A DNA stretch of 32,000 bases from an archaeon (GTDB lineage: Archaea > Iainarchaeota > Iainarchaeia > Iainarchaeales > CSSED10-239). The stretch is taken from NCBI GenBank assembly GCA_035390665.1, contig DAOOUC010000005.1, forward strand, positions 1 to 32,000, read 5' to 3'. Shown in pieces: positions 80 to 18,877 of this stretch (positions within the stretch are counted from its first letter, which is position 1; each line of letters begins with the position of its first letter). The notes beneath the pieces were generated by a model. It saw only the letters and a list, made by a program, of their open reading frames with translations, was not told where the DNA came from and searched no databases. Made by a program: the position numbers and the translations under genes.

Positions 80-502
80 CTATTCCACATCATATTGAAA
101 AGTAGCGGTTGTACTTGGATCATATCCTGTTTTGTATGTTTTTGCTTTTAATGTTAAATCTTGTGTTATGGTTATTGGGGAATTATAAATTGAACTGCTT
201 TCGGTTGGTTCACTCTCATCTAAAGTATACCTTATTATCCCGCCACTTACTATTGTACGTAGAACAATTTCTGTTCCAGAAGTAACTGTGCCACTTGGAT
301 AAGAAGAAAGTGGTGGATAAATTACATAATTTTTATTTAACTCATCTTTAAATATTTTATTTGATTCTATATTTAATTCTGTATTATCTACGGATTTTGG
401 TTTTATTGAAGAAAAATAAAAAGCGCCTACAATAATTGCACCAATTACAAATATTCCAAAAATTATTAACCCTTCTAATGATGCTTGTCCTTTAGATTTC
501 AT
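80..502 (-). CDS. Archaeal type IV pilin-like protein (class III signal peptide) with C-terminal CHB_HEX_C-like beta-sandwich domain
   Basis: The N-terminus MKSKGQASLEGLIIFGIFVIGAIIVGAF has a short basic leader, a KG|Q cleavage context, a QxSxE motif and a hydrophobic helix, as in DUF361/EppA-type archaeal prepilins. The C-terminal stretch GGIIRYTLDESEPTESSSIYNSPITITQDLTLKAKTYKTGYDPSTTATFQY fits the remembered chitobiase/hexosaminidase C-terminal consensus (IyYTtDGs.Pt.sS.lY..Pi.i....lkA.a...G...S). The start lies 2 nt after the stop of the upstream pilin gene (TAATTATG). Confidence 0.65.
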   Translation of the reverse strand: MKSKGQASLEGLIIFGIFVIGAIIVGAFYFSSIKPKSVDNTELNIESNKIFKDELNKNYVIYPPLSSYPSGTVTSGTEIVLRTIVSGGIIRYTLDESEPTESSSIYNSPITITQDLTLKAKTYKTGYDPSTTATFQYDVE

Positions 503-504
503 AA

Positions 505-957
505 TTATTCAGAAATGGTGTATGTTCTTTCTTGTATATTACCATAAATGCTGTTTACACAAGCAATAACTTTAATTGTTGTGGTGCTAGTTATTTCTAT
601 TGGTGTAGTATACAAAGAAGAAGTACAAGTTGGATTATTTCCATTAGTTGTATAATGCATTTTTACATCAGAACAACTGCCTGTGTAATTTAAAGATATC
701 AATTGAGAAGTAGAATAAGTTCCTCCTGTTGGAGAAAAACTAATTGAATTTAATTGACTAGTAGTACAATTTATATTTGTTTTTTCAAATGCTCTAGATC
801 CATCAAAATCAGTAGATTTTGCTTTTTTTATATTCGTGGTTATTGTTGAAATATAATAGGTTCCTGCAACAAGTGCGCCAATTGTTAAAACCGCCATAAT
901 AATTAGAACTTCTATAGACATCTGCCCTTTTTCTTTCGTATATAACCCTTTTAACAT
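505..957 (-). CDS. Archaeal type IV pilin-like protein (class III signal peptide) with C-terminal CHB_HEX_C-like domain
   Basis: The N-terminus MLKGLYTKEKGQMSIEVLIIMAVLTIGALVAG has a KGQxSxE motif followed by a hydrophobic helix. The C-terminal stretch ISFSPTGGTYSTSQLISLNY...VKMHYTTNGNNPTCTSSLYTTPIEITSTTTIKVIAC shows the same CHB_HEX_C-like pattern. An AGGT SD-like element lies about 8 nt upstream of the ATG. Confidence 0.65.
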   Translation of the reverse strand: MLKGLYTKEKGQMSIEVLIIMAVLTIGALVAGTYYISTITTNIKKAKSTDFDGSRAFEKTNINCTTSQLNSISFSPTGGTYSTSQLISLNYTGSCSDVKMHYTTNGNNPTCTSSLYTTPIEITSTTTIKVIACVNSIYGNIQERTYTISE

Positions 958-1030
958 TAAAATTACCTTCTACTCTTTTGATACAATATCTAATATTATA
1001 CCTGTATAATATTTAAAAAAGAATAGTATA

Positions 1031-1050
1031 AAATATAAAAGAAAAAGAAA
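1031..1050 (-). terminator. Possible oligo-T archaeal terminator after the surface-protein gene
   Basis: Directly after the stop codon the minus strand reads TTTCTTTTTCTTTTATATTTT. Archaeal RNAP terminates at oligo-T tracts. The AT-rich background weakens this call. Confidence 0.3.
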
Positions 1051-1149
1051 TTATTTTCTTCTGAAAATAATTATTAGTACAATTAAAACAATTAAACCTA
1101 AAACAATTAAGCCCATGTTTCCTAAAGTCAAGAAACCTGTTATTGCTGA
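1051..1149 (-). other. Tripartite C-terminal sorting-signal-like tail (Ser-rich linker, TGF motif, about 20-aa hydrophobic helix, RRK)
   Basis: The last 32 aa of the 976-aa protein are SAITGF-LTLGNMGLIVLGLIVLIVLIIIF-RRK. The architecture resembles PGF-CTERM-type archaeosortase signals, but with T in place of P. Confidence 0.5.
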
Positions 1150-3981
1150 AGAATTACTTTTTAAGATTATTTTCTCTTTAGCTAAAACTTCTTCAGTTGC
1201 TTTGTCTTTTATTTTCAAATCTAATGTTTTGTTTTCTTTTAAAATAGATGGAGAAACAATTTTATATTGTTTAATTATTTTTTCTCCTGGTAAAATATTT
1301 ATTTCTTTATCTCCTTCAATTACATAAGAGTCATCCAATCCAAAATCAATAATTGTATTTTGAGTAATTGAACTATTGTTCTTTAAATTAATTTTAAGAT
1401 AATATACCTTATCTTGATTTTCAACACTAGCTGATATTGTTATTGGATCTGTTTTAGGAGATAAATCTATAGTAATTGGATACTTCTTAATTAAATTATT
1501 TCCTGAATATAATTCAATGTAACCGTTATATGCTCTTTTTTCTGCAGACTCAGGAATACTTAAAGTTAATGAAATTGATTTTCTATCGTGTGCCAAAATT
1601 TCTAAAGTTTTTGGGGTACTTGAAAATGTTTCTGGAAATCCAGATAGTTTTAATGTAACTGATTTTGAAACAGCAAAACTATTATTTACTGTTGTTGAAA
1701 TGTTTACATTTTTTGACAATGGAGTTATTAGTGTTGGATAAGAAACAATATTTATTCTCTCACTTTCTGAAATATTATTGTTAACTACTGTAAAATATCT
1801 TTTTGAAGAACAATTATTTAAAAGTACATCAAAATAAATATTTGTTGGATTATTAAAATTAGATAATTCTATTTCTTTATTAAAACTATCAAATCCATTT
1901 AACAAAATTATATTTGGCTCTATTGCTAATCCATTTCCAGAAATTAAAATCTTTCCGCCTCTTGAAGACCTATTTATGAAATTTAAATTTAAGTATTCAA
2001 TTGCATTATTCACAGAAATACTTGTTGGAACAATCAATTCAGAATCACAAACGTCATCTGAAAGATTAATTTGTTTATTATCACTTACTATAAAACCAGA
2101 AGTTGTTTTTGTAAGATCACAGGTTTTTCCATCCTCAAACTTTCCTGAAATTAACATCTCTAAACTTCCATTCCCTGTAAACCCAACACTCATTGTGTTT
2201 TGAGAATTAGAATTAACAGTTAATTGCTTATTTGTTACATTTCCTGAAAGACCATATCTGTTTTGGAATAAAACATTTGTTACATAGAATTTTTTATTAG
2301 TATTATTAAATATTTGAATATTATTATTTGTACCTGGCGTTATTATTTTATTATACACCCCTATATTACTACACAATAAATCTGAAGAATCTAATATTCC
2401 TATATTAAATTGCTTAACTCCAATTTCTGTAGTTGAACAAGTTTTACCATCTGCAAATCTTCCACTTACTGCTATTGATCCTTTTGGATTTTCAGTAGTA
2501 CTTACTGAATTTGTAATTAATTCAAAAGCGATTGCTTCTTTGTCTTTAGATAATATGCTTGAATCATAATTTACATTTCTTATTTCTGCTTTATTTGAAT
2601 TGTCATTTATTGAAAGAGAAGTAATACTAAACTGTTGATTAGAATTGTTTGCTATAAAAAAACCATTCTCTTCTGAATAGTTCTCACTTGTGTTTTCTAA
2701 TTGTTGTATATTTGTTGTATACAAGACAATGTCTTTACAACTTTGAATTGTTGAATTATTATTTGAAGAACTCGAACTACTTGTTCCTTCGTTTCTAATT
2801 GTTATAACTAAATTTTCTCTTTTTGTACATTTCTTGTCTTCTCTTCCTGATCTAACTAAATATCCTTCTATTTCTAAATCTATATTTTTTGTAGTTGTGT
2901 AATTTACGCTTTCTGTTTCAAATTCAATTTCTATATCTTCTGTAGAGTCTTCTCTTACTATTGTTGGCTCGTCTCTTATTCTAGAAGATATATATGAATC
3001 GTCATCTATTGTTATATCATCAATTTCAAAATCATAATCTTCTGATTCGTTTACTATTTTTACTGTTTTAAGTTCAAATGATTCTTCATCTAAAGTAAAT
3101 TTAGTATCATCTATAGAAATATCTGAACAACTACTTGTATTATCATTATCTTCATCATTAATATGATAATCTACTGTGTAGGTTTTTAGACACTCTTGTC
3201 CTAAACCATATTTTGCTCTTACATAAATATCAAAGCTTGAGTCTTCATCGTCACTTATTGTATCAGACTCTAAACTTAAATTTACTGTTCCAACATAATT
3301 TCCTGAAACATAGTCAGGATAATCAATATCACTTATATCTAATTCTGAAGAATCATCTGCAGTAACTGATAAAACAGTTAATTCTTCACTTGAGTCGTTT
3401 TCTATGTATAGTTTATAATTTTCTTCATCATCTTCTTCTAAATAAATATCTCTTCTACCTGATAAAAAGAAACTTGAACAAGTTGTTTGTGTTTCTTGAG
3501 AGTTATCGTTTGGATTTGTATTATCATCTACAGGATAAAAATAAGAACTTGGGGCGCCAACAGGATAAACATATGCAGAGCTTGTAGTGTAATAGTTTTG
3601 ACCTGATTGAGCATTAACCTGAATTACATATCCTTGATATTCAGGAGTTAAATAGAAAAGATTAGGATAATAATATTCTGTTGCACTACTTAAATAATAA
3701 GTTAAACTTGGAACTGAATAGAGGTAATCAAGATTACCGGAACCGTTTATTCCATATACTTGCGGAGAAACAATTACTGGAACATAAGAATATCCTGATG
3801 GAATATCTTCTGCTCTAAGTTTTAATTTCATACTTACATTATCGTAATAATTACCATATTGTATACTTAGATATTCTATTCCAGAATCTGTATTAACATA
3901 AGAATAATCTATTGTAAATGGAACAGCATAAACTCCTGCCATTACTAATAACAAACTTAATATTATCATTAACTTTTTCAT
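1051..3981 (-). CDS. 976-aa secreted, probably glycosylated cell-surface (S-layer/adhesin-like) protein with a C-terminal sorting-signal-like anchor
   Basis: Sec-type signal peptide MKKLMIILSLLLVMAGVYA. The protein then has a Tyr-rich region, a D/E-rich region, five Cys-bracketed modules of about 100 aa, and two CARDB/NEW3-like beta-sandwich-looking segments (e.g. LTLSIPESAEKRAYNGYIELYS). By manual count there are about 28 N-x-S/T sequons. The C-terminus is SSAITGFLTLGNMGLIVLGLIVLIVLIIIFRRK. Confidence 0.8.
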   Translation of the reverse strand: MKKLMIILSLLLVMAGVYAVPFTIDYSYVNTDSGIEYLSIQYGNYYDNVSMKLKLRAEDIPSGYSYVPVIVSPQVYGINGSGNLDYLYSVPSLTYYLSSATEYYYPNLFYLTPEYQGYVIQVNAQSGQNYYTTSSAYVYPVGAPSSYFYPVDDNTNPNDNSQETQTTCSSFFLSGRRDIYLEEDDEENYKLYIENDSSEELTVLSVTADDSSELDISDIDYPDYVSGNYVGTVNLSLESDTISDDEDSSFDIYVRAKYGLGQECLKTYTVDYHINDEDNDNTSSCSDISIDDTKFTLDEESFELKTVKIVNESEDYDFEIDDITIDDDSYISSRIRDEPTIVREDSTEDIEIEFETESVNYTTTKNIDLEIEGYLVRSGREDKKCTKRENLVITIRNEGTSSSSSSNNNSTIQSCKDIVLYTTNIQQLENTSENYSEENGFFIANNSNQQFSITSLSINDNSNKAEIRNVNYDSSILSKDKEAIAFELITNSVSTTENPKGSIAVSGRFADGKTCSTTEIGVKQFNIGILDSSDLLCSNIGVYNKIITPGTNNNIQIFNNTNKKFYVTNVLFQNRYGLSGNVTNKQLTVNSNSQNTMSVGFTGNGSLEMLISGKFEDGKTCDLTKTTSGFIVSDNKQINLSDDVCDSELIVPTSISVNNAIEYLNLNFINRSSRGGKILISGNGLAIEPNIILLNGFDSFNKEIELSNFNNPTNIYFDVLLNNCSSKRYFTVVNNNISESERINIVSYPTLITPLSKNVNISTTVNNSFAVSKSVTLKLSGFPETFSSTPKTLEILAHDRKSISLTLSIPESAEKRAYNGYIELYSGNNLIKKYPITIDLSPKTDPITISASVENQDKVYYLKINLKNNSSITQNTIIDFGLDDSYVIEGDKEINILPGEKIIKQYKIVSPSILKENKTLDLKIKDKATEEVLAKEKIILKSNSSAITGFLTLGNMGLIVLGLIVLIVLIIIFRRK
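1810..3480 (-). repeat. Protein-level tandem array of five divergent Cys-bracketed modules within the surface protein
   Basis: All ten cysteines of the protein fall at aa 168/264, 285/385, 415/515, 537/621 and 645/724, giving intra-pair spacings of 96, 100, 100, 84 and 79 aa. Linkers between pairs are 21-30 aa. The closing motif recurs as SGRFADGKTCS / SGKFEDGKTCD / RSGREDKKCT / YGLGQECL. Confidence 0.6.
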
Positions 3982-6869: not shown

Positions 6870-7538
6870 TCAATCAAAATCTCTAGTGAAAAGATAGCTC
6901 ATCTTTTCTGCTTTTTTTGGGCCCATTTTTTCTACTTCTTGTAATTGTTTCTTATCTGCATTTGCAATGGTTTTAATATTTTTAAACTTTCTTAAAAGAG
7001 ATTTAGCAAGACTTGGACCAATATCAGGAAAAGACTCTAAAATAAAAAGTTGTTGATCTGAAAAAGACATTTTAGTTTTACTAAATCTGTGCTTAATTTC
7101 TGTCTTTACACCATACTGTTCTCTTTTTGCAATAACATATAAGAAAAGAGCTGTTTCTTTTTGATTTCTTGTAAAATATATTGGCACCCTATAGTTTAAA
7201 CCAATGGCAGTCAATAAACCAATCATTGATTTATTGTTTATTCTATTACTATTTTCAGAAAAATTAATAATGCCTTCAACAATTAGACAAGGTTTTTTAA
7301 CTTTAGTTGATAACTCTTCTATCTGATTAAAAATCCTACCATCAATAATAGATGCCTCTAAATCCGCAATTGTTTTTCTTTCAACTAAAACATCTTCGCT
7401 TAATTGATAATCCCCAAGAGACAATTGCTCAAGCTTTATCTCAACTTTAAAATCATCAGTAGAAAGAGATTGAAGCTCTTGAGAAATTTGACTTACTCTT
7501 TCTCGTAAATCACAAATAATATGTATTTTTGAAGACAT
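6870..7538 (-). CDS. ERCC4/XPF-type nuclease with C-terminal (HhH)2 domain (Hef nuclease half)
   Basis: ERCC4 signature LSLGDYQLSEDVLVERKTIADLEASIIDGRIFNQ. C-terminal helix-hairpin-helix pair LESFPDIGPSLAKSLL...LQEVEKMGPKKAEKM. Confidence 0.85.
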   Translation of the reverse strand: MSSKIHIICDLRERVSQISQELQSLSTDDFKVEIKLEQLSLGDYQLSEDVLVERKTIADLEASIIDGRIFNQIEELSTKVKKPCLIVEGIINFSENSNRINNKSMIGLLTAIGLNYRVPIYFTRNQKETALFLYVIAKREQYGVKTEIKHRFSKTKMSFSDQQLFILESFPDIGPSLAKSLLRKFKNIKTIANADKKQLQEVEKMGPKKAEKMSYLFTRDFD

Positions 7539-7540
7539 AA

Positions 7541-9124
7541 TTAAAAATCACTTATTCTTTTTTGTTCTTTCTTCCTGACTTTTCTTATAGCTGTTTTATG
7601 AAAATTCTTAAGAATCGTTTTCATTCTTTTTTCTTTATTTTGAGAAACAGTAAAATATTTTTCATCAATTGTATCTTTATTAATCAATAATACAACTTTG
7701 CCAACATTAAATCTTCCTGTTCTTCCCCTTCTTTGTATATTTCTAATTTCTGAAGCTACGGCATCATAAAATATTACTAAATCAACAGACGGAATGTCTA
7801 GTCCTTCTTCGCCAACAGAAGTACATACTAGTATATTGTAAATTCCGGATTTAAAATCAAAAATAATGGATAACTGTTCTTTTTGAGAAAGGCCCTTATC
7901 AGAGGTTTTTGTGGCTTGTCCAACAAATCGTGTTGTTTTTATGCCTGTTTGTTTGTTTAAAAGTTCTACAAGGTTAGAGGCGTTGTCTCTAAAATTATTA
8001 AAAACCAGTATTTTTGATTTAGGGTTTTCTTTAATAAATTCTTTTACAATCTTTAATAATTCTTTTTCTTTTGAGTATTCTAATCTTTCTTTATTTTTTG
8101 ATAAATATAATACTATTTCTTTAAATTCATCAGAATTATAAAAAGAACTTGCAGCTTTACTAGAATGTTTTACTTTAGCTTCTTCAACTACTTTATTTAA
8201 ATAATTTTGAAATGCAACAAAGCCTTGTGTTTCAATTAATTCCAAAGCATGTAATGCTTTAAGAATAACAGATACAAAAGATATTGCAATAAAATGATTA
8301 GTTGATTTTGATTTATTTACTAATAAAAATAATTTTGCTTGAAGATCAATAATTTGTTTTTTTGTATAATTTTCAGGAATCACATATCCTAATCTTCTTA
8401 GTACCAAAATTTTAGATTTTATAAACGATTTAAGTTTTTCTGAAACAAATTTAGAATCTTTATCTAGTTCTGTATATATTGTTTCTATTTCTACATCATT
8501 AACATAATCTACAACATCAATATCTTCTTCTGTTTTTATCTCTATGTGTTTTATACCTAAATTATCTGCAACTTCTTGAATTTTTGATTTATTTGCACCA
8601 GGAGATGCAGTTAATCCCAGTCTTTTAGTATCTTCTGAAAAATATTGAGAAATGAAAGTATATGAATAATTCCCAACAGCTCTGTGTGCTTCATCAAAAA
8701 TAATTAAATTAAAATTATTTGAATCTAATAATTTTTCTTCTAAATCGTGCTGTATTGTTTGAGGAGTTGCACAAATTATTAGACCTTCTCCATCATAAAA
8801 TGCTTTTCTCTTTTCTTGAGTAATTTCCCCAGTTAAAAGAATTATTTTTTCTTCAGAAATTTTCAAGAAATTAAGAAGGCTTTTTTTATGTTGAGCAATC
8901 AATGGTTTTGTTGGAGATAAAAGAATGATTGATTTCTTAGGATTATAAGTATAAGCAATCAACAATACTGCAACAATGGTTTTACCTAAGCCCGTTGGAG
9001 CAACAACCAATGTACTTTCTTTAATTGCTTGAGCAGTAAGTAATTCTTGATAAAGTCTTTTCTTTATTGTTTCTTTCTTAACAAGCGGGTGTTCTATAAA
9101 AATAGAATTATCCATATTAAACAA
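7541..9124 (-). CDS. Hef/FANCM/Mph1-family SF2 DNA helicase (Hef helicase half)
   Basis: Motif I VVAPTGLGKT, motif II IIFDEAHRAV (DEAH), motif VI QRRGRTGR. An inserted helical domain lies between the RecA lobes. The stop codon is 2 nt before the nuclease ATG. Confidence 0.85.
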   Translation of the reverse strand: MFNMDNSIFIEHPLVKKETIKKRLYQELLTAQAIKESTLVVAPTGLGKTIVAVLLIAYTYNPKKSIILLSPTKPLIAQHKKSLLNFLKISEEKIILLTGEITQEKRKAFYDGEGLIICATPQTIQHDLEEKLLDSNNFNLIIFDEAHRAVGNYSYTFISQYFSEDTKRLGLTASPGANKSKIQEVADNLGIKHIEIKTEEDIDVVDYVNDVEIETIYTELDKDSKFVSEKLKSFIKSKILVLRRLGYVIPENYTKKQIIDLQAKLFLLVNKSKSTNHFIAISFVSVILKALHALELIETQGFVAFQNYLNKVVEEAKVKHSSKAASSFYNSDEFKEIVLYLSKNKERLEYSKEKELLKIVKEFIKENPKSKILVFNNFRDNASNLVELLNKQTGIKTTRFVGQATKTSDKGLSQKEQLSIIFDFKSGIYNILVCTSVGEEGLDIPSVDLVIFYDAVASEIRNIQRRGRTGRFNVGKVVLLINKDTIDEKYFTVSQNKEKRMKTILKNFHKTAIRKVRKKEQKRISDF

Positions 9125-14763: not shown

Positions 14764-14916
14764 TTGACTCAAAGTTTAGCAAGTGGAATTCTTATTGGCA
14801 TTGGTATTGGAACATACATTCCATCTTTACCTGCTCCTTTAAATATAATTAATACTTATCTCGGATTAATATTAATTATTATTGGACTAATATTGTTAAT
14901 CAGAGCAAAAAATTAA
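14764..14916 (+). CDS. Candidate small membrane protein (50 aa, TTG start), below the ORF-track length cutoff
   Basis: GGTGA at 14755-14759 is followed by 4 nt and then TTG, the same SD spacing as for the LSm and aIF5A genes. The translation LTQSLASGILIGIGIGTYIPSLPAPLNIINTYLGLILIIIGLILLIRAKN gives two hydrophobic helices. It fills an otherwise empty 223-nt gap. Confidence 0.35.
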   Translation: MTQSLASGILIGIGIGTYIPSLPAPLNIINTYLGLILIIIGLILLIRAKN

Positions 14917-15810
14917 TTATTTATTTTCTTTTAATCTTTTTTCTATTTCTGCAAAAACATCATTTATTTCAGAAACTGTGTGTGTTTTTGGCTTACTTTT
15001 AAATGCATTTTTTATAGACTCGAATAAGCCCTTTTTTGTTTCTTCTTTCTTTACAGACGGATATTTATTAAATGAAACTTTCTCTTCTTCAAATACATTC
15101 TTTTTCTTTTTGGAAAGATCATTAAAATTAATTGTAGAAGCTTCTCCTTTTACTGGTGGATTCTCATAATTTTTAGAAAGTAGGGAATTAATAATATTAA
15201 TTACCTTGTTTTGTTCTATCTTTGTCTCAGAGGCAAAAGGCAAATTTTGATTTTCCATTTTTTCTAAAACCGATATTGCTATATCTTTTGTAAATCCTTC
15301 ATCTAATATTGCTTGCTCTATTTCTTCTCTAGTATAATATTTTGCTTGAGATCTTAATAAATCAAATAAAAAATCAATTGTGTTCAATTTATGTTTTTCA
15401 AGTTTTGAACTTCTATTTTCTTGTTCTCTATTTTCTACTTCTTTTATCTTGTAAGATTGAAGTTGAACTTTATATTCTGGATATTTAGATAAATAAAGCA
15501 CAATATTTTCATACTCTTTTGCATAATTAAATTGAGCAAAGGAATATTCTTCAAAGGATATTTCTTTTCTAGAATATAGTTGGTCAATTTTACTCATTTC
15601 TTCTCTTATAATCTTATATCTTTTAAAATAAGATTTGGGATTACGAAATAACACAGGCATTAAATAAGCCACTAAAAACATAATTAAAATAAAAAAAAGA
15701 AAAAGAAAAATGTACGTGCTAAATTCATTTAATGTCTGCAACCATGACTGATTAATTGTATTTTCAGCAATTTGCTGACCAAAATATACATCTAAAAATA
15801 TCTTATCCAT
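14917..15810 (-). CDS. Hypothetical N-terminally membrane-anchored protein (297 aa)
   Basis: TM helix YIFLFLFFILIMFLVAYLMPVLF followed by a long charged helical tail. Contains a SHOCT-like segment (LYSRKEISFEEYSFAQ) and an EQAILDEGFTKDIAISVLEK motif. It is the last gene of the co-directional run 14917-18323. Confidence 0.6.
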   Translation of the reverse strand: MDKIFLDVYFGQQIAENTINQSWLQTLNEFSTYIFLFLFFILIMFLVAYLMPVLFRNPKSYFKRYKIIREEMSKIDQLYSRKEISFEEYSFAQFNYAKEYENIVLYLSKYPEYKVQLQSYKIKEVENREQENRSSKLEKHKLNTIDFLFDLLRSQAKYYTREEIEQAILDEGFTKDIAISVLEKMENQNLPFASETKIEQNKVINIINSLLSKNYENPPVKGEASTINFNDLSKKKKNVFEEEKVSFNKYPSVKKEETKKGLFESIKNAFKSKPKTHTVSEINDVFAEIEKRLKENK

Positions 15811-15821
15811 GGTTAAAAGAA

Positions 15822-16055
15822 TTAAACGGTCACAAGTATTACTGTGTCTCCTCTTAAGAATACTTCAACATATTTGGTTTTTACTTTTCCATTGTCTAAT
15901 TCTTCTGCATCTTCTAATACTATATTTAAGTGCACATCAAATGCTTTTAATTTTCCTCTTACCATTACATTTCCTTTTAACATAATCAATACTTGTTTAT
16001 TTAAAGAATTGTTAAGCATATCGAATGGTCTCGTTATTTTTAAATCGTTGTTCAT
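15822..16055 (-). CDS. Sm-like archaeal protein (LSm/SmAP)
   Basis: Sm1 (VLIMLKGNVMVRGKLKAFDVHLNIVLEDAEEL) and Sm2 (VFLRGDTVILV) motifs. AGGTGA lies 4 nt upstream of the ATG. Confidence 0.85.
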   Translation of the reverse strand: MNNDLKITRPFDMLNNSLNKQVLIMLKGNVMVRGKLKAFDVHLNIVLEDAEELDNGKVKTKYVEVFLRGDTVILVTV

Positions 16056-16081: not shown

Positions 16082-16879
16082 TTATTTCTTTTTAAAAATA
16101 TTCTTCAGTGCTGTAAAAAATCCAGAAAATAATTTTTTCTTTTCTGGTTTTATATCAGTGTCAATTTCTTTGCCAGTTATTTTTCTAGCAACCGCTCTAA
16201 ATGAATTTGCGGCCGCACAACTTGGATTGTGCACTAATACGGGTTTAATTTTTTTTAATAAAAATGATTCTCTTATATCTTCAGAATAAGGGATTTTACC
16301 AAAAGAAGGCAACTCTAACATCTTCATGATTTCATTTTCAGAGATTTCTCCTTTAGTATTACTGTGCTTATTTATTATTACCCCCATTACCCTTTGATTT
16401 AATCTTTGAGCAACAATTTTTGCTTTAAATGCATCTGCAACGGATGGTGCCGTTGGTTCAGTAATTAACAAAATTTGAGTTGAAGCAGACATTGCAGCAA
16501 TTACATTCTTTTCTATGCCTGCTGGAGAATCAATTAAAATATAATCAAATTTTTTTTGAAGATCTCTAGTTATTGCAACCAATCTTTCAACATCTACTCT
16601 TGTATAAAAAGATATAGAAAGACCCGCAGGAATTATTTTTACTCCTGATGGTCCATCATAAATTGCATCTTGTGCAGGTGCTGAACCCAATAAAACATCA
16701 TGAATTGTAATTGGTGGAGTTTTTAATCCCATTAATAGACTTAAATTAGCCATAGCTAAATCAGCATCAATCATTAAAACAGAATATCCTAATTCTGCTA
16801 ATGCTATTCCTAAGTTCCCTGTAAGTGTTGTTTTCCCAACGCCTCCTTTCCCTGAAACTATTGCAATTATTTCTCCCAT
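16082..16879 (-). CDS. minD: MinD/ParA-family P-loop ATPase with C-terminal amphipathic helix
   Basis: Deviant Walker A SGKGGVGKTT directly after MGEIIAIV, plus MIDADLAMANL and a Walker B-like ILIDSPAGIE. The ORF track extends the gene to a TTG at 16915. I prefer the ATG at 16879 because it gives the canonical MinD N-terminus and has GTGA upstream. The C-terminus is KKKLFSGFFTALKNIFKKK. Confidence 0.85.
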   Translation of the reverse strand: MGEIIAIVSGKGGVGKTTLTGNLGIALAELGYSVLMIDADLAMANLSLLMGLKTPPITIHDVLLGSAPAQDAIYDGPSGVKIIPAGLSISFYTRVDVERLVAITRDLQKKFDYILIDSPAGIEKNVIAAMSASTQILLITEPTAPSVADAFKAKIVAQRLNQRVMGVIINKHSNTKGEISENEIMKMLELPSFGKIPYSEDIRESFLLKKIKPVLVHNPSCAAANSFRAVARKITGKEIDTDIKPEKKKLFSGFFTALKNIFKKK

Positions 16880-16902
16880 TTTTATTTCACATTTATATAA
16901 TT

Positions 16903-17349
16903 TTAAACGATACAATTTATAAAATTCTCTATTTCTTTAACAATTGTTAAAACTTCTATTCTTGAAAGTCCGTCGTTTGCTTTAATAAAATAAACTCTAT
17001 CTAGATTTTTAAAAATTATTTGCCAACCATTTGCTTCAATTAAAATTATAGACATATCTTTTATTTCTGAATTAATATAATTATACATTGCCGCACTTTT
17101 AAATCCTTCTTTTATGTCTTTGTTTGTACTTCCAATAATTATTCCATCAGTATCTGTTATTATTACATCATTAATTAGATGTTTTAATCTTAATTTTTGT
17201 AAAAAATCAGTCAAATCAGAAGAATGAATAAATATTGGCTTATATTCTAAAAGACTAGATATTGCATTTTCATTTTTTCTATCTTCAATATTTAATATTT
17301 TTGTTGATAATTTTGTAAAAAATTTTGTAAATAATGCCATTTTTGTCAC
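16903..17349 (-). CDS. Roadblock/LC7 (MglB-like) domain protein
   Basis: INDVIITDTDGIIIGSTNKD...AAMYNYI...SIILIEANGWQIIFKNLDRVYFIKANDGLSRIEV fits the Robl/LC7 pattern (v.d.dG..ia.....d....aA.......; ..i.ie...g.l.......l.v.a). A GTG start overlaps the upstream stop (GTGA); an alternative ATG is at 17340. This was judged by eye only. Confidence 0.55.
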   Translation of the reverse strand: MTKMALFTKFFTKLSTKILNIEDRKNENAISSLLEYKPIFIHSSDLTDFLQKLRLKHLINDVIITDTDGIIIGSTNKDIKEGFKSAAMYNYINSEIKDMSIILIEANGWQIIFKNLDRVYFIKANDGLSRIEVLTIVKEIENFINCIV

Positions 17350-17846
17350 TCTCTTAATAAATCATTTAAATTAAAATTATTTATAATTTCTTTATTAGAA
17401 ATTTCTGTTTTTATTTTGTCTGATAACAACAGTTCTATTTTCTTTTCATCATATTTTAAATTAATAAATATTGACTTTTTCTTTTTGTCAGAAATATTTA
17501 ATTGATATTTTATTTTTTCATTAAATAATAGAATTAATTTAATTTGATCTTGGGTGAGAGCAAAAATATTTAACATTCCTTTATTTAATCCATAACTGTT
17601 TAAACAATATAAAATTGCATCTTTGCCGTACAATTCAACATCATAACCAGTGATTAAAAAAATAGAACCTACAATTTGTCCTTTTGATAAAATAAGAATA
17701 GATTCTTCAAATCCGTATTTTCCTAGAACAGTCAAATAACAATACCCATCAAAATTTTTCTCACTTAAATCTAAAAATAATTTATGAGAATCAATCTTAT
17801 CCAATGGAACGTTTCTAACTATCGGATTAATTACAGGTAAATTCAT
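17346..17846 (-). CDS. Hypothetical protein, DUF4388/PatA-N-like pattern (166 aa)
   Basis: LFLDLSEKNFDGYCYLTVLGKYGFEESILILSKGQIVGSIF...LYGKDAILYCLNSYGLNKGMLNIFAL resembles the DUF4388-type layout (l..l....~tG.l.l......~~~i.~~~G.iv.A......G.~Al..ll....G.f.f). The assignment is weak. Confidence 0.4.
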   Translation of the reverse strand: MNLPVINPIVRNVPLDKIDSHKLFLDLSEKNFDGYCYLTVLGKYGFEESILILSKGQIVGSIFLITGYDVELYGKDAILYCLNSYGLNKGMLNIFALTQDQIKLILLFNEKIKYQLNISDKKKKSIFINLKYDEKKIELLLSDKIKTEISNKEIINNFNLNDLLRE

Positions 17847-17864
17847 ATATTTTAGCCTATTTTA

Positions 17865-18323
17865 TTATTTAATGAAAATCACTCTATCCACTGTGTTTTT
17901 TAAAGCAACCGCTGAGCCGTCTTCTACTAAATATACGACTGTTTTTTTGCCTTGTCTTTTTGCTTTTAAGATTGCAGGTAAATAATCTGAGTCTCTTGTT
18001 ATAAAGACAACCGTGTCTATCTCTTTGCTAAATGCTGCTTCTGTGGCATCAACTGCCATTGCAACATCAACATCTCCCACAGTTATTACACTTTCAAAAC
18101 CAATATTAACAACTGCTTCAATAAGTTTATCAGTTGCATATTGATCTAAATAAACTCTAGCAATCTTTAATGGCCCCTCTTTTTGCAATTGAGATTTAAT
18201 TTTGAATAAATCAATGTTAAATTCTTTCCTTAACATATTTGGCCCATCTACAAAAACTGCAATATTATTTCTATTTGATTCTTTGTGTTCTTTTTTAAAA
18301 AGCGATTTTAATATTTTAAACAT
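17865..18323 (-). CDS. NYN-domain (LabA/DUF88-like) putative ribonuclease
   Basis: IAVFVDGPNM..., then VGDVDVAMAVDATEAA, then VVFITRDSDYLPAILKAKRQGKKTVV. The acidic residues follow the arrangement typical of NYN/PIN-like nucleases. Confidence 0.75.
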   Translation of the reverse strand: MFKILKSLFKKEHKESNRNNIAVFVDGPNMLRKEFNIDLFKIKSQLQKEGPLKIARVYLDQYATDKLIEAVVNIGFESVITVGDVDVAMAVDATEAAFSKEIDTVVFITRDSDYLPAILKAKRQGKKTVVYLVEDGSAVALKNTVDRVIFIK

Positions 18324-18484
18324 TTTCTGTCAACTCTTTTTTTCTGTTAATTAATGCTATACTATTAAATATATTTGTGAATAGTATATTTATTGTTAAA
18401 CAAAACATATTTAAAATATATTTATACTTAAATATATAGTATTTTAATTTTAAATACGAATTTTTTATACAAATTGGTGAAATT

Positions 18485-18877
18485 ATGAGAGATTTTGAAA
18501 TAAAATTCATGTCCTTAGGACAAGTCAAAGAAAAACAATATATATTAATAGATGATGTAATTTGTAAAGTAGATACAATCACAAAATCAAAACCAGGTAA
18601 ACATGGTGCTGCAAAAGTTAGACTTACAGCAACTGCAGTATTTACTGGATCTAAAATGAATCTATTAAAACCAAGTTCAGAAGATGTAGAAATTCCTATT
18701 CTTGATAAAGGAAATGCACAAATTATTGCAGACCTTGGAAATAAATATCAAATAATGGATACAGCAAATTACCAAACATTAGAAGTGGACAAAGACGAAT
18801 TTACAGATTTAGTTTCTGGTTCTGAAATTGAATACCTTAAGGCCGGGTCTTTAATCAAAATATCAAGAAAGAAATAA
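18485..18877 (+). CDS. eif5a: Translation initiation factor 5A (aIF5A)
   Basis: Hypusination loop SKPGKHGAAKVRL and an OB-fold C-terminal half. GGTGA lies 4 nt upstream of the ATG at 18485, which supports the long start over the internal ATG at 18509. Confidence 0.9.
   Translation: MRDFEIKFMSLGQVKEKQYILIDDVICKVDTITKSKPGKHGAAKVRLTATAVFTGSKMNLLKPSSEDVEIPILDKGNAQIIADLGNKYQIMDTANYQTLEVDKDEFTDLVSGSEIEYLKAGSLIKISRKK

Follow-up and report, generated by a model that had tools for sequence, protein, structure and literature searches.

The first 32,000 nt of contig DAOOUC010000005.1 (GenBank assembly GCA_035390665.1), from a small-genome DPANN archaeon of the Iainarchaeales, are AT-rich (~26% G+C) and are referred to here as the window. 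On the minus strand of the window, from position 18323 to 14917, six co-directional open reading frames (ORFs) encode, in order, an NYN-domain protein, a 166-aa protein, a protein of 145 or 148 aa, a MinD ATPase, an LSm protein, and a 297-aa membrane protein, with gaps of 18, 5 (or a GTGA overlap if a GTG start is used), 23, 26, and 11 nt. We describe evidence that the second gene belongs to the DUF2226 family and the third to the Roadblock/LC7 fold, that DUF2226, MinD, and LSm form the near-invariant core of an operon conserved across many archaeal genomes, and that the cluster may constitute a MinD-type membrane positioning module. The principal features are as follows (coordinates in the window, strand, identity, and basis).

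17865..18323, minus strand: NYN-domain protein, 152 aa (PF01936 and TIGR00288)
17346..17846, minus strand: DUF2226-family protein, short form, 166 aa (via homologues, not through a Pfam match of its own)
17349..17399, minus strand: C-terminal tail motif of the DUF2226 protein, SNKEIINNFNLNDLLRE (alignment and C-termini of ~110 loci)
16903..17340, minus strand: Roadblock/LC7-fold protein, 145 aa from ATG 17340, or 148 aa from GTG 17349 (fold and remote profile)
17281..17340, minus strand: N-terminal peptide of the Roadblock protein, MALFTKFFTKLSTKILNIED (N-termini of 70 loci)
16082..16879, minus strand: archaeal MinD ATPase, 265 aa from ATG 16879 (TIGR01969)
16829..16852, minus strand: deviant Walker A motif of MinD, GKGGVGKT (reading of the translation and alignment to 1HYQ)
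16085..16138, minus strand: C-terminal amphipathic helix of MinD, KKLFSGFFTALKNIFKKK (motif conservation and hydrophobic moment)
15822..16055, minus strand: LSm / Sm-like archaeal protein, 77 aa, last conserved gene of the cluster (PF01423)

A preliminary description of the window had reported the first four genes as co-directional and near-abutting, and all four ORFs are indeed present on the minus strand. The 18-nt gap that it gave between the NYN stop codon and the start of the 166-aa gene is exact, and the spacer from the stop of the third gene to the MinD start at ATG 16879 is 23 nt. This ATG is preferred over a mechanically called TTG start at 16915, which is unlikely, because homologous MinDs measure 256–288 aa. 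The reported GTGA overlap between the 166-aa gene and its neighbor stands only if the latter starts at GTG 17349; with ATG 17340, the usual start among homologues, it is replaced by a 5-nt gap. Since most homologues are 145 aa long and begin at that ATG, ATG 17340 is favored, and the overlap is probably the product of a wrongly called start. The LSm and membrane-protein genes follow on the same strand, as described, at spacings of 26 and then 11 nt.

Gene order was sampled in one genome per GTDB species using a degenerate nucleotide pattern based on the core motif of DUF2226, which gave at least 119 loci, including four bacterial false positives. Neighbors were counted by ORF-level hidden Markov model (HMM) searches on those loci, and the denominators given here and below are informative loci among the matches listed. 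The module occurs in at least ~115 archaeal species-level genomes, whose labels as deposited are mostly Iainarchaeota/Diapherotrites, Micrarchaeota, or plain "archaeon"; AR10, a complete genome, and Ca. Iainarchaeum andersonii are among them. MinD lies downstream of DUF2226 on the same strand at 75 of 77 loci (97%) and is followed by LSm at 63 of 66 (95%), versus a Roadblock gene between DUF2226 and MinD at 64 of 100 (64%) and an NYN gene upstream of DUF2226, usually within a few nt, at 53 of 94 (56%). The near-invariant core is therefore DUF2226-MinD-LSm, and the conserved unit may be written (NYN)-DUF2226-(Roadblock)-MinD-LSm, with the variable genes in parentheses. For NYN-DUF2226, DUF2226-Roadblock, and MinD-LSm the median gap is 4–5 nt, and 4-nt overlaps are frequent (the MinD-LSm median is 4 nt, and 27 of 77 such pairs overlap). 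Where the Roadblock gene is lacking, mainly in Micrarchaeota, DUF2226 abuts or overlaps MinD directly.

Close homologues on long contigs keep the order NYN, DUF2226, Roadblock, MinD, LSm. Two divergent, independently retrieved members (loci L127 and L128) show the same organization, and a third (L129) retains at least DUF2226-MinD, to which neither NYN nor LSm adjoins; among divergent family members, DUF2226 identity falls to ~20–25%. Beyond LSm, no conserved gene was found outside the window's clade among the matches listed, and the upstream genes vary among the retrieved contigs. Conserved synteny in other genomes, on which the preliminary description had beforehand let its proposal depend, was thus found in at least ~115 of them, and this recurrence, together with the independently retrieved contigs, places the arrangement far from chance. 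The four-gene set that it had put forward is not itself the conserved unit, with Roadblock absent from about one-third of loci and NYN adjacent at only ~56%. A typical operon also occurs at L091, L104, and L114 under the labels Methanobacteriota, Marsarchaeota, and Thaumarchaeota; the proteins resemble those of Micrarchaeota- or Iainarchaeota-labeled genomes, and by sequence these loci are probably mislabeled or mis-binned metagenome-assembled genomes (MAGs) rather than signs of a wider distribution.

The fourth gene encodes a MinD-type deviant-Walker-A ATPase, as had been proposed: its product scores 260.4 bits against the archaeal model TIGR01969 (minD_arch; cut-off, 201.75) versus 141 bits against the bacterial MinD model TIGR01968, under the cut-off of 212.9. 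Among solved structures, the protein comes nearest to A. fulgidus MinD-1 (1HYQ, E=4.9e-57), followed by Pyrococcus MinD and, after it, bacterial MinD and FleN. The deviant Walker A motif (SGKGGVGKTT, with the signature lysine) and the Walker B region (ILIDSPAG) are intact and align with 1HYQ, so that the enzyme looks catalytically competent as judged from its motifs. Nearly all of ~85 operon MinDs among the matches listed end in a C-terminus of the type KKGF[LF]xx[LI]xx[IL]F[KR]KK, represented in the window by KKLFSGFFTALKNIFKKK, whose hydrophobic moment (0.65) lies at the 98.6th percentile. The membrane-targeting sequence (MTS) of bacterial MinD is an amphipathic helix that resembles this C-terminus, and some orthologous MinDs end in KGIMEKIKSIFGG, which we take to be very near the MTS of B. 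subtilis MinD. We predict from these motifs that the C-terminal helix is an MTS; a homologous MTS has been described for archaeal MinD4 (10.1101/2020.04.03.021790). In line with the preliminary description, the scanned window ORFs, several of which have no Pfam match at all, yielded neither a MinC nor a MinE domain, and neither was found among the Pfam annotations of the retrieved contigs.

Four related genomes carry an operon MinD of 746–767 aa (L101 4473-6776, minus strand; L108 5197-7437, plus strand; L109 1583-3886, plus strand; L118 895-3138, minus strand). The extra length is an insertion of ~465 aa inside the Walker A motif (GKGGVGK|S...VSN|TT) with LAGLIDADG-like motifs, most likely an intein that includes a homing endonuclease.

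The 166-aa protein comprises an N-terminal alpha/beta domain (approximately residues 1–117), a Lys/Glu-rich linker, and a conserved C-terminal tail. Searched directly against Pfam and NCBIfam, it gives no meaningful match, and PF09987 (DUF2226) is not matched even at E<=1. PF09987 is matched by 8 of 27 close homologues (best E=1.5e-6) and by 60 of 62 sampled clusters of the wider family (best E=6e-17), which supports the assignment of the window protein as a short-form DUF2226 member by transitive homology. A family profile retrieved only 139 clusters in a full HMMER search of 1.8 billion representatives, and a further search with the wider-family profile returned mostly close relatives again; no match was found in a metagenome scan with the long-form alignment, or in plasmids with a family member as tblastn query. 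The DUF4388/PatA-N-like pattern that had been seen in this protein fared less well than its DUF2226 affiliation: PF14332 (DUF4388/PatA_N) matches are limited to 3 of 62 clusters of the wider family and are weak (E>=0.0033), and three long DUF2226 relatives carry precomputed matches to both PF14332 and PF09987. The AlphaFold2 (AF2) monomer model has a predicted local distance difference test score (pLDDT) of 84 and a predicted template modeling score of 0.77. Compared with the PDB by Foldseek, it gives nothing significant (best E=0.07), and the family profiles match PDB sequences only at the level of noise. An hhalign comparison found no relationship between the DUF2226 and Roadblock families and so ruled out that the two proteins are paralogues.

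Across the C-termini of ~110 loci among the matches listed, the DUF2226 tail follows the motif [ST][KR]x[DE]h[FL]KK[LFY]GLxGL, of which the window's clade has a degenerate version, KEIINNFNLNDLLRE; the tail is modeled at low pLDDT (50–62). Basic terminal peptides of ParB-type partners activate ParA-family ATPases, and the DUF2226 tail is similar in style; we propose it as a candidate MinD-contact or activating peptide. The family also occurs in other settings. At L006 6001-8015 and L007 954-2980, DUF2226/PatA_N proteins of 407–411 aa are encoded with a 4-nt overlap with the gene for a 264-aa KaiC/RecA-like ATPase (PF06745). In a MAG labeled Methanobacteriota (L059 2707-5888, minus strand), a Roadblock/LC7 gene (PF03259, 27 bits) comes before a canonical 296-aa DUF2226 gene, after which lie genes for a small membrane protein and two paralogues (237 and 246 aa) with Roadblock-like N-terminal domains, and no MinD was found near this locus. 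By analogy, the KaiC-like pairing and the L059 context support the idea that DUF2226 is an adaptor acting alongside NTPases and Roadblock proteins.

The third gene product, as encoded from ATG 17340, has an N-terminal extension of ~40 residues followed by an alpha-beta-beta-alpha-beta-beta-beta-alpha domain. Direct searches against Pfam and NCBIfam give nothing above threshold, and PF03259 is matched below threshold by 4 of 39 family members (best E=0.069). The AF2 monomer model (pLDDT 70) has Roadblock topology (H43-54, E56-63, E68-71, H76-92, E98-102, E106-112, E115-121, H127-144), and the top 50 Foldseek matches in the PDB are all Roadblock, LAMTOR, MglB, or archaeal Roadblock proteins (E=2e-5 to 3e-4; target-normalized TM-scores of 0.55–0.75 for most). 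A profile of 39 homologues retrieves only dynein Roadblock chains from the PDB (best E=0.018), and with a broader profile, built from the same-position gene of 24 diverse genomes, the nine best matches are dynein Roadblock chains covered over the whole domain (E=0.0034–0.19). Finally, hhalign aligns the family with the bona fide archaeal Robl_LC7 protein of L059 (E=4.9e-4, 96 columns, probability 32%). Profile, predicted fold, and hhalign thus agree in supporting a divergent Roadblock/LC7-fold protein, and the original Roadblock/LC7 assignment is backed by fold and remote profile, although the direct Pfam scan finds no match. By iterative HMM search, the middle ORF joins one family at 64 of 69 loci.

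Across 70 loci among the matches listed, the Roadblock protein has at its N-terminus an amphipathic helix with a Lys face, closed by the conserved motif K[VI]L[DN]h[DE]D. In the window, the peptide has a hydrophobic moment of 0.59 (97th percentile of 11-mers in window proteins) and a pLDDT of ~50, and it may bind the membrane or MinD. The Roadblock fold regulates or scaffolds NTPases, and the NTPase adjacent here is MinD. In agreement with the preliminary description, neither the cluster nor the scanned ORFs of the 32-kb window, several of which have no Pfam match, showed a GTPase domain.

The two RNA-related proteins of the cluster were identified directly. The NYN protein passes the thresholds of both PF01936 (E=1.7e-27; 97.2 bits, cut-off 24.2) and TIGR00288 (181.2 bits, cut-off 178.45; a full member), confirming the earlier assignment; it is a predicted PIN-like RNase, and its acidic motifs (VFVDGPN, GDVDVAMAVDA, TRDSDY) are intact. 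At L005 668-1090 (plus strand), an extra gene for a 140-aa protein with no significant Pfam match lies between NYN and DUF2226, indicating that the NYN junction is the least constrained of the cluster. The LSm protein matches PF01423 with E=2.3e-20.

We favor, with moderate confidence, reading this cluster as a MinD-type membrane positioning module of DPANN archaea in which the DUF2226 and Roadblock proteins act as regulators or adaptors. From the gene identities, folds, motifs, and synteny described above, we infer its protein–protein interactions, membrane binding, ATPase regulation, and cellular role as follows. MinD would be an ATP switch whose ATP-bound dimer binds the membrane through the C-terminal amphipathic helix. 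DUF2226 would be the dedicated, obligate partner of MinD, since in essentially every genome among the matches listed the two genes lie side by side and often overlap. It would probably engage the MinD dimer via the flexible, conserved, basic "KKxGL" tail, in a manner akin to the action of the terminal peptides of ParB or MinE on ParA/MinD-family ATPases, and its folded N-terminal PATAN-like domain would bind a cargo or landmark. Given the absence of Roadblock from one-third of loci, DUF2226 and not Roadblock is the prime candidate for the MinD partner; the Roadblock protein would be a lineage-variable accessory, presumably dimeric, whose N-terminal amphipathic and acidic peptide could modulate the membrane residence or ATPase activity of MinD. 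The cargo might be the FtsZ divisome, type IV pili, or an assembly for RNA processing that includes the co-transcribed LSm and NYN proteins. In a stronger form, which we consider rather unlikely, the DUF2226 and Roadblock proteins would be non-homologous counterparts of MinE and MinC that stimulate the MinD ATPase and release MinD from the membrane via the tail and/or the N-terminal peptide, giving a self-organizing gradient or oscillator to place the FtsZ divisome, or some other polar machine, in those DPANN archaea that lack Dip, the divisome-positioning system discussed below. If true, this would be a third, independently evolved solution for spatial patterning on the ancestral MinD switch.

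Several observations weigh against a positioning module of this kind. The sampled genomes come from related lineages, so that some of the gene-order conservation may be inherited and not selected. The Roadblock protein, being dispensable at so many loci, is not essential to the core mechanism, and the tail of the window's own clade lacks the family "KK" (NNFNL versus KKLGL). The amphipathicity of the terminal helices is high and not exceptional for a Lys-rich proteome (97th–99th percentile); for these helices, conservation is a stronger argument than hydrophobic moments, which are suggestive but not unique. The partner encoded in a Haloferax volcanii MinD operon, HVO_0596, has no phenotype, and the neighbors in archaeal MinD operons are therefore not automatically functional partners. 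Moreover, the near-invariant LSm gene and the frequent NYN gene are RNA-related, and a pure positioning model leaves both unexplained.

These last two genes could instead be the purpose of the operon, with MinD as a membrane-associated scaffold or ATP switch that organizes a processing or decay assembly of the NYN RNase and the LSm ring, and with the DUF2226 and Roadblock proteins as adaptors. The LSm-MinD linkage is as tight as that of DUF2226 in frequency, spacing, and overlaps, and the NYN gene, adjacent at more than half of the loci and mostly within a few nt, encodes intact acidic motifs. The cluster also lies among translation and RNA genes (aIF5A, PheRS, ribosomal proteins, tRNase Z), and in E. 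coli, MinD has been reported to be linked to the RNA degradosome or Hfq. However, contact of MinD with LSm or NYN is here derived from gene order, and LSm, a universal housekeeping gene found in other operons in other archaea, may merely share the promoter; NYN is missing or displaced at ~44% of loci, and at L129 DUF2226-MinD stands with neither gene adjacent. We regard an RNA-metabolism module as improbable. The lineage relationships raise the further, similarly unlikely, alternative that there is no functional module, the order being an inherited string of housekeeping genes in two related DPANN phyla and the small proteins being independent of MinD. The deposited labels of most listed loci (Iainarchaeota/Diapherotrites, Micrarchaeota, or an unspecific "archaeon"), the housekeeping nature of the flanking genes, and the retention of a divergent aIF5A neighbor, which indicates that long-range synteny persists in such genomes, all fit this account. 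Yet conservation ends beyond LSm and the upstream genes vary, while the DUF2226-MinD junction, with its stop and start codons overlapping, survives where protein identity is down to ~20%, and DUF2226 is paired elsewhere with a different, KaiC-like, ATPase.

Finally, MinD might regulate a type IV pilus or another surface filament in the manner of FleN/FlhG, setting pilus number or position at a PilB-type assembly ATPase through the PATAN-like domain of DUF2226, with Roadblock as co-regulator. PATAN (DUF4388) domains of cyanobacterial regulators are reported to bind the type IV pilus motor (10.1101/2021.06.11.447907); archaeal type IV pilus loci are often associated with FleN/MinD ATPases (arCOG00589) and Roadblock proteins (arCOG02603) (Makarova et al. 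2016, PMC4858521); and H. volcanii MinD2 and MinD4 position motility machinery and not the divisome. We nonetheless give this account a low probability: no pilin, PilB/PilC, or prepilin-peptidase gene was found beside the cluster in the window or among the Pfam-annotated genes of eight retrieved contigs, and the DUF2226-DUF4388 link is weak.

The favored positioning module shares with bacterial MinCDE (E. coli and B. subtilis) a MinD-family deviant-Walker-A ATPase with an MTS-style C-terminal amphipathic helix and small co-transcribed partner proteins, and its Roadblock protein is built like MinE, an amphipathic peptide at the N-terminus being joined to an alpha/beta domain that is probably dimeric. 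In contrast to MinCDE, the partners are the unrelated families DUF2226 (with no solved structure) and Roadblock/LC7, and the operon also carries LSm and an NYN nuclease; identity with the MinCDE system was rejected, neither MinC nor MinE having been found in the scanned window ORFs. Closer relatives are MinD2 and MinD4 of H. volcanii, which position archaella and chemosensory arrays and belong to the same archaeal MinD family, with a C-terminal MTS and no MinC or MinE. Those proteins, however, are euryarchaeal, and their neighbors (HVO_0596, che, and arl genes) have not been reported as DUF2226 or Roadblock proteins, whereas the MinD described here is from DPANN. HVO_0596, the MinD2 operon partner, was likewise rejected as a counterpart, having no stated relation and no phenotype. 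Archaeal MinD has been reported as exclusive to Euryarchaeota and as occurring without MinC or MinE, the oscillation of MinD4 seemingly being driven by an unknown system (10.1101/2020.04.03.021790).

As in MglA/MglB, Ragulator-Rag, dynein LC7, and Asgard Roadblock-GTPase pairs, a Roadblock-fold protein is encoded here beside a P-loop NTPase switch, which it presumably regulates or scaffolds. In this case, however, the NTPase is a SIMIBI-class MinD ATPase and not a Ras-like GTPase, and the Roadblock protein has a conserved N-terminal extension and is dispensable in about one-third of lineages; an MglA/MglB module was rejected for want of a GTPase in the cluster or the scanned window ORFs. The PATAN (DUF4388/PatA_N) regulators of cyanobacteria and myxobacteria offer a further likeness, being small alpha/beta interaction domains tied to polarity or motility machinery and motor ATPases, and some long DUF2226 proteins are co-annotated as PatA_N; unlike them, the window protein matches neither Pfam model directly, lacks a receiver domain, is archaeal, and is paired with MinD. 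The Dip system, an archaeal divisome-positioning oscillator described in a preprint (DipA GTPase, DipB DUF2073, and DipC Zn-ribbon; PMC13228585), is Min-like in encoding a membrane-binding NTPase and small partners in one operon, but it has no sequence-level relation to the present module and was rejected as its identity, the families being different. Within DPANN, Dip is found only in Nanohaloarchaeota (PMC13228585), and the lineages that carry the present module apparently lack it.

In the literature searched, which leaves most subscription journals outside its coverage and an earlier comparative-genomics mention possible, the cluster is nowhere described and DUF2226 nowhere mentioned, in keeping with the earlier remark that no such combination was known to have been characterized. 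The ParA/MinD-type positioning system is itself familiar; what is new is the partner set, and with DUF2226 and Roadblock an archaeal MinD would for the first time have concrete candidates for its partners. The operon thus bears on how archaeal MinDs, which position machinery without MinC or MinE, are activated, localized, and patterned, a question made directly testable in vitro by small, expressible candidate partners whose linkage is kept in more than 100 species among the matches listed. It would also extend MinDs with a predicted MTS to DPANN, against their reported restriction to Euryarchaeota, and would for the first time place DUF2226 in a functional setting, that of a partner to P-loop ATPases (MinD or KaiC-like). 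If the favored positioning module is correct, Roadblock proteins would work with a SIMIBI ATPase instead of a Ras-like GTPase.

The remaining features of the locus flank the conserved genes.

14917..15810, minus strand: membrane protein, 297 aa, with one N-terminal transmembrane segment (no Pfam match)
18324..18484, no strand: AT-rich intergenic region shared with the divergent aIF5A gene (read from the sequence)
18485-18877, plus strand: aIF5A, divergent from the cluster (ORF/domain scan)

Homologues of the membrane protein lie downstream of LSm only in L001-L005 and L052 among the matches listed. It is probably outside the core module and was rejected as part of it, because this downstream gene is not conserved beyond the window's own clade. 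The promoter of the cluster is presumably located in 18324..18484. A divergent aIF5A gene also stands just upstream in two distant relatives, L127 (1641-2027) and L128 (3955-4332), adjoining NYN in the window and in L128 and separated from it by one gene (TatD) in L127, so that the promoter region shared by aIF5A and the cluster seems to be conserved too. The window otherwise holds archaeal housekeeping genes: ribosomal proteins S8e, L1, L10, and P1, both subunits (alpha and beta) of phenylalanyl-tRNA synthetase (PheRS), enolase, aIF5A, LonB, PCNA, tRNase Z, and a split Hef. The last of these, a Hef-like repair enzyme at 6870-9124 (minus strand), seemingly consists of a DEAD/ResIII helicase (7541-9124) and, 2 nt away, an ERCC4-HhH nuclease (6870-7538). 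At 80-3981 (minus strand), a 976-aa protein with no Pfam match is followed by two small tandem proteins (140 and 150 aa) that carry CHB_HEX_C_1/Fn3_assoc domains; this may be a surface or adhesion locus. Converging on the 3' end of the membrane-protein gene, a strongly hydrophobic 50-aa ORF lies at 14764-14916 (plus strand), and ORFs of 50–51 aa called at the equivalent position in L001-L004 suggest that it encodes a genuine small membrane protein.

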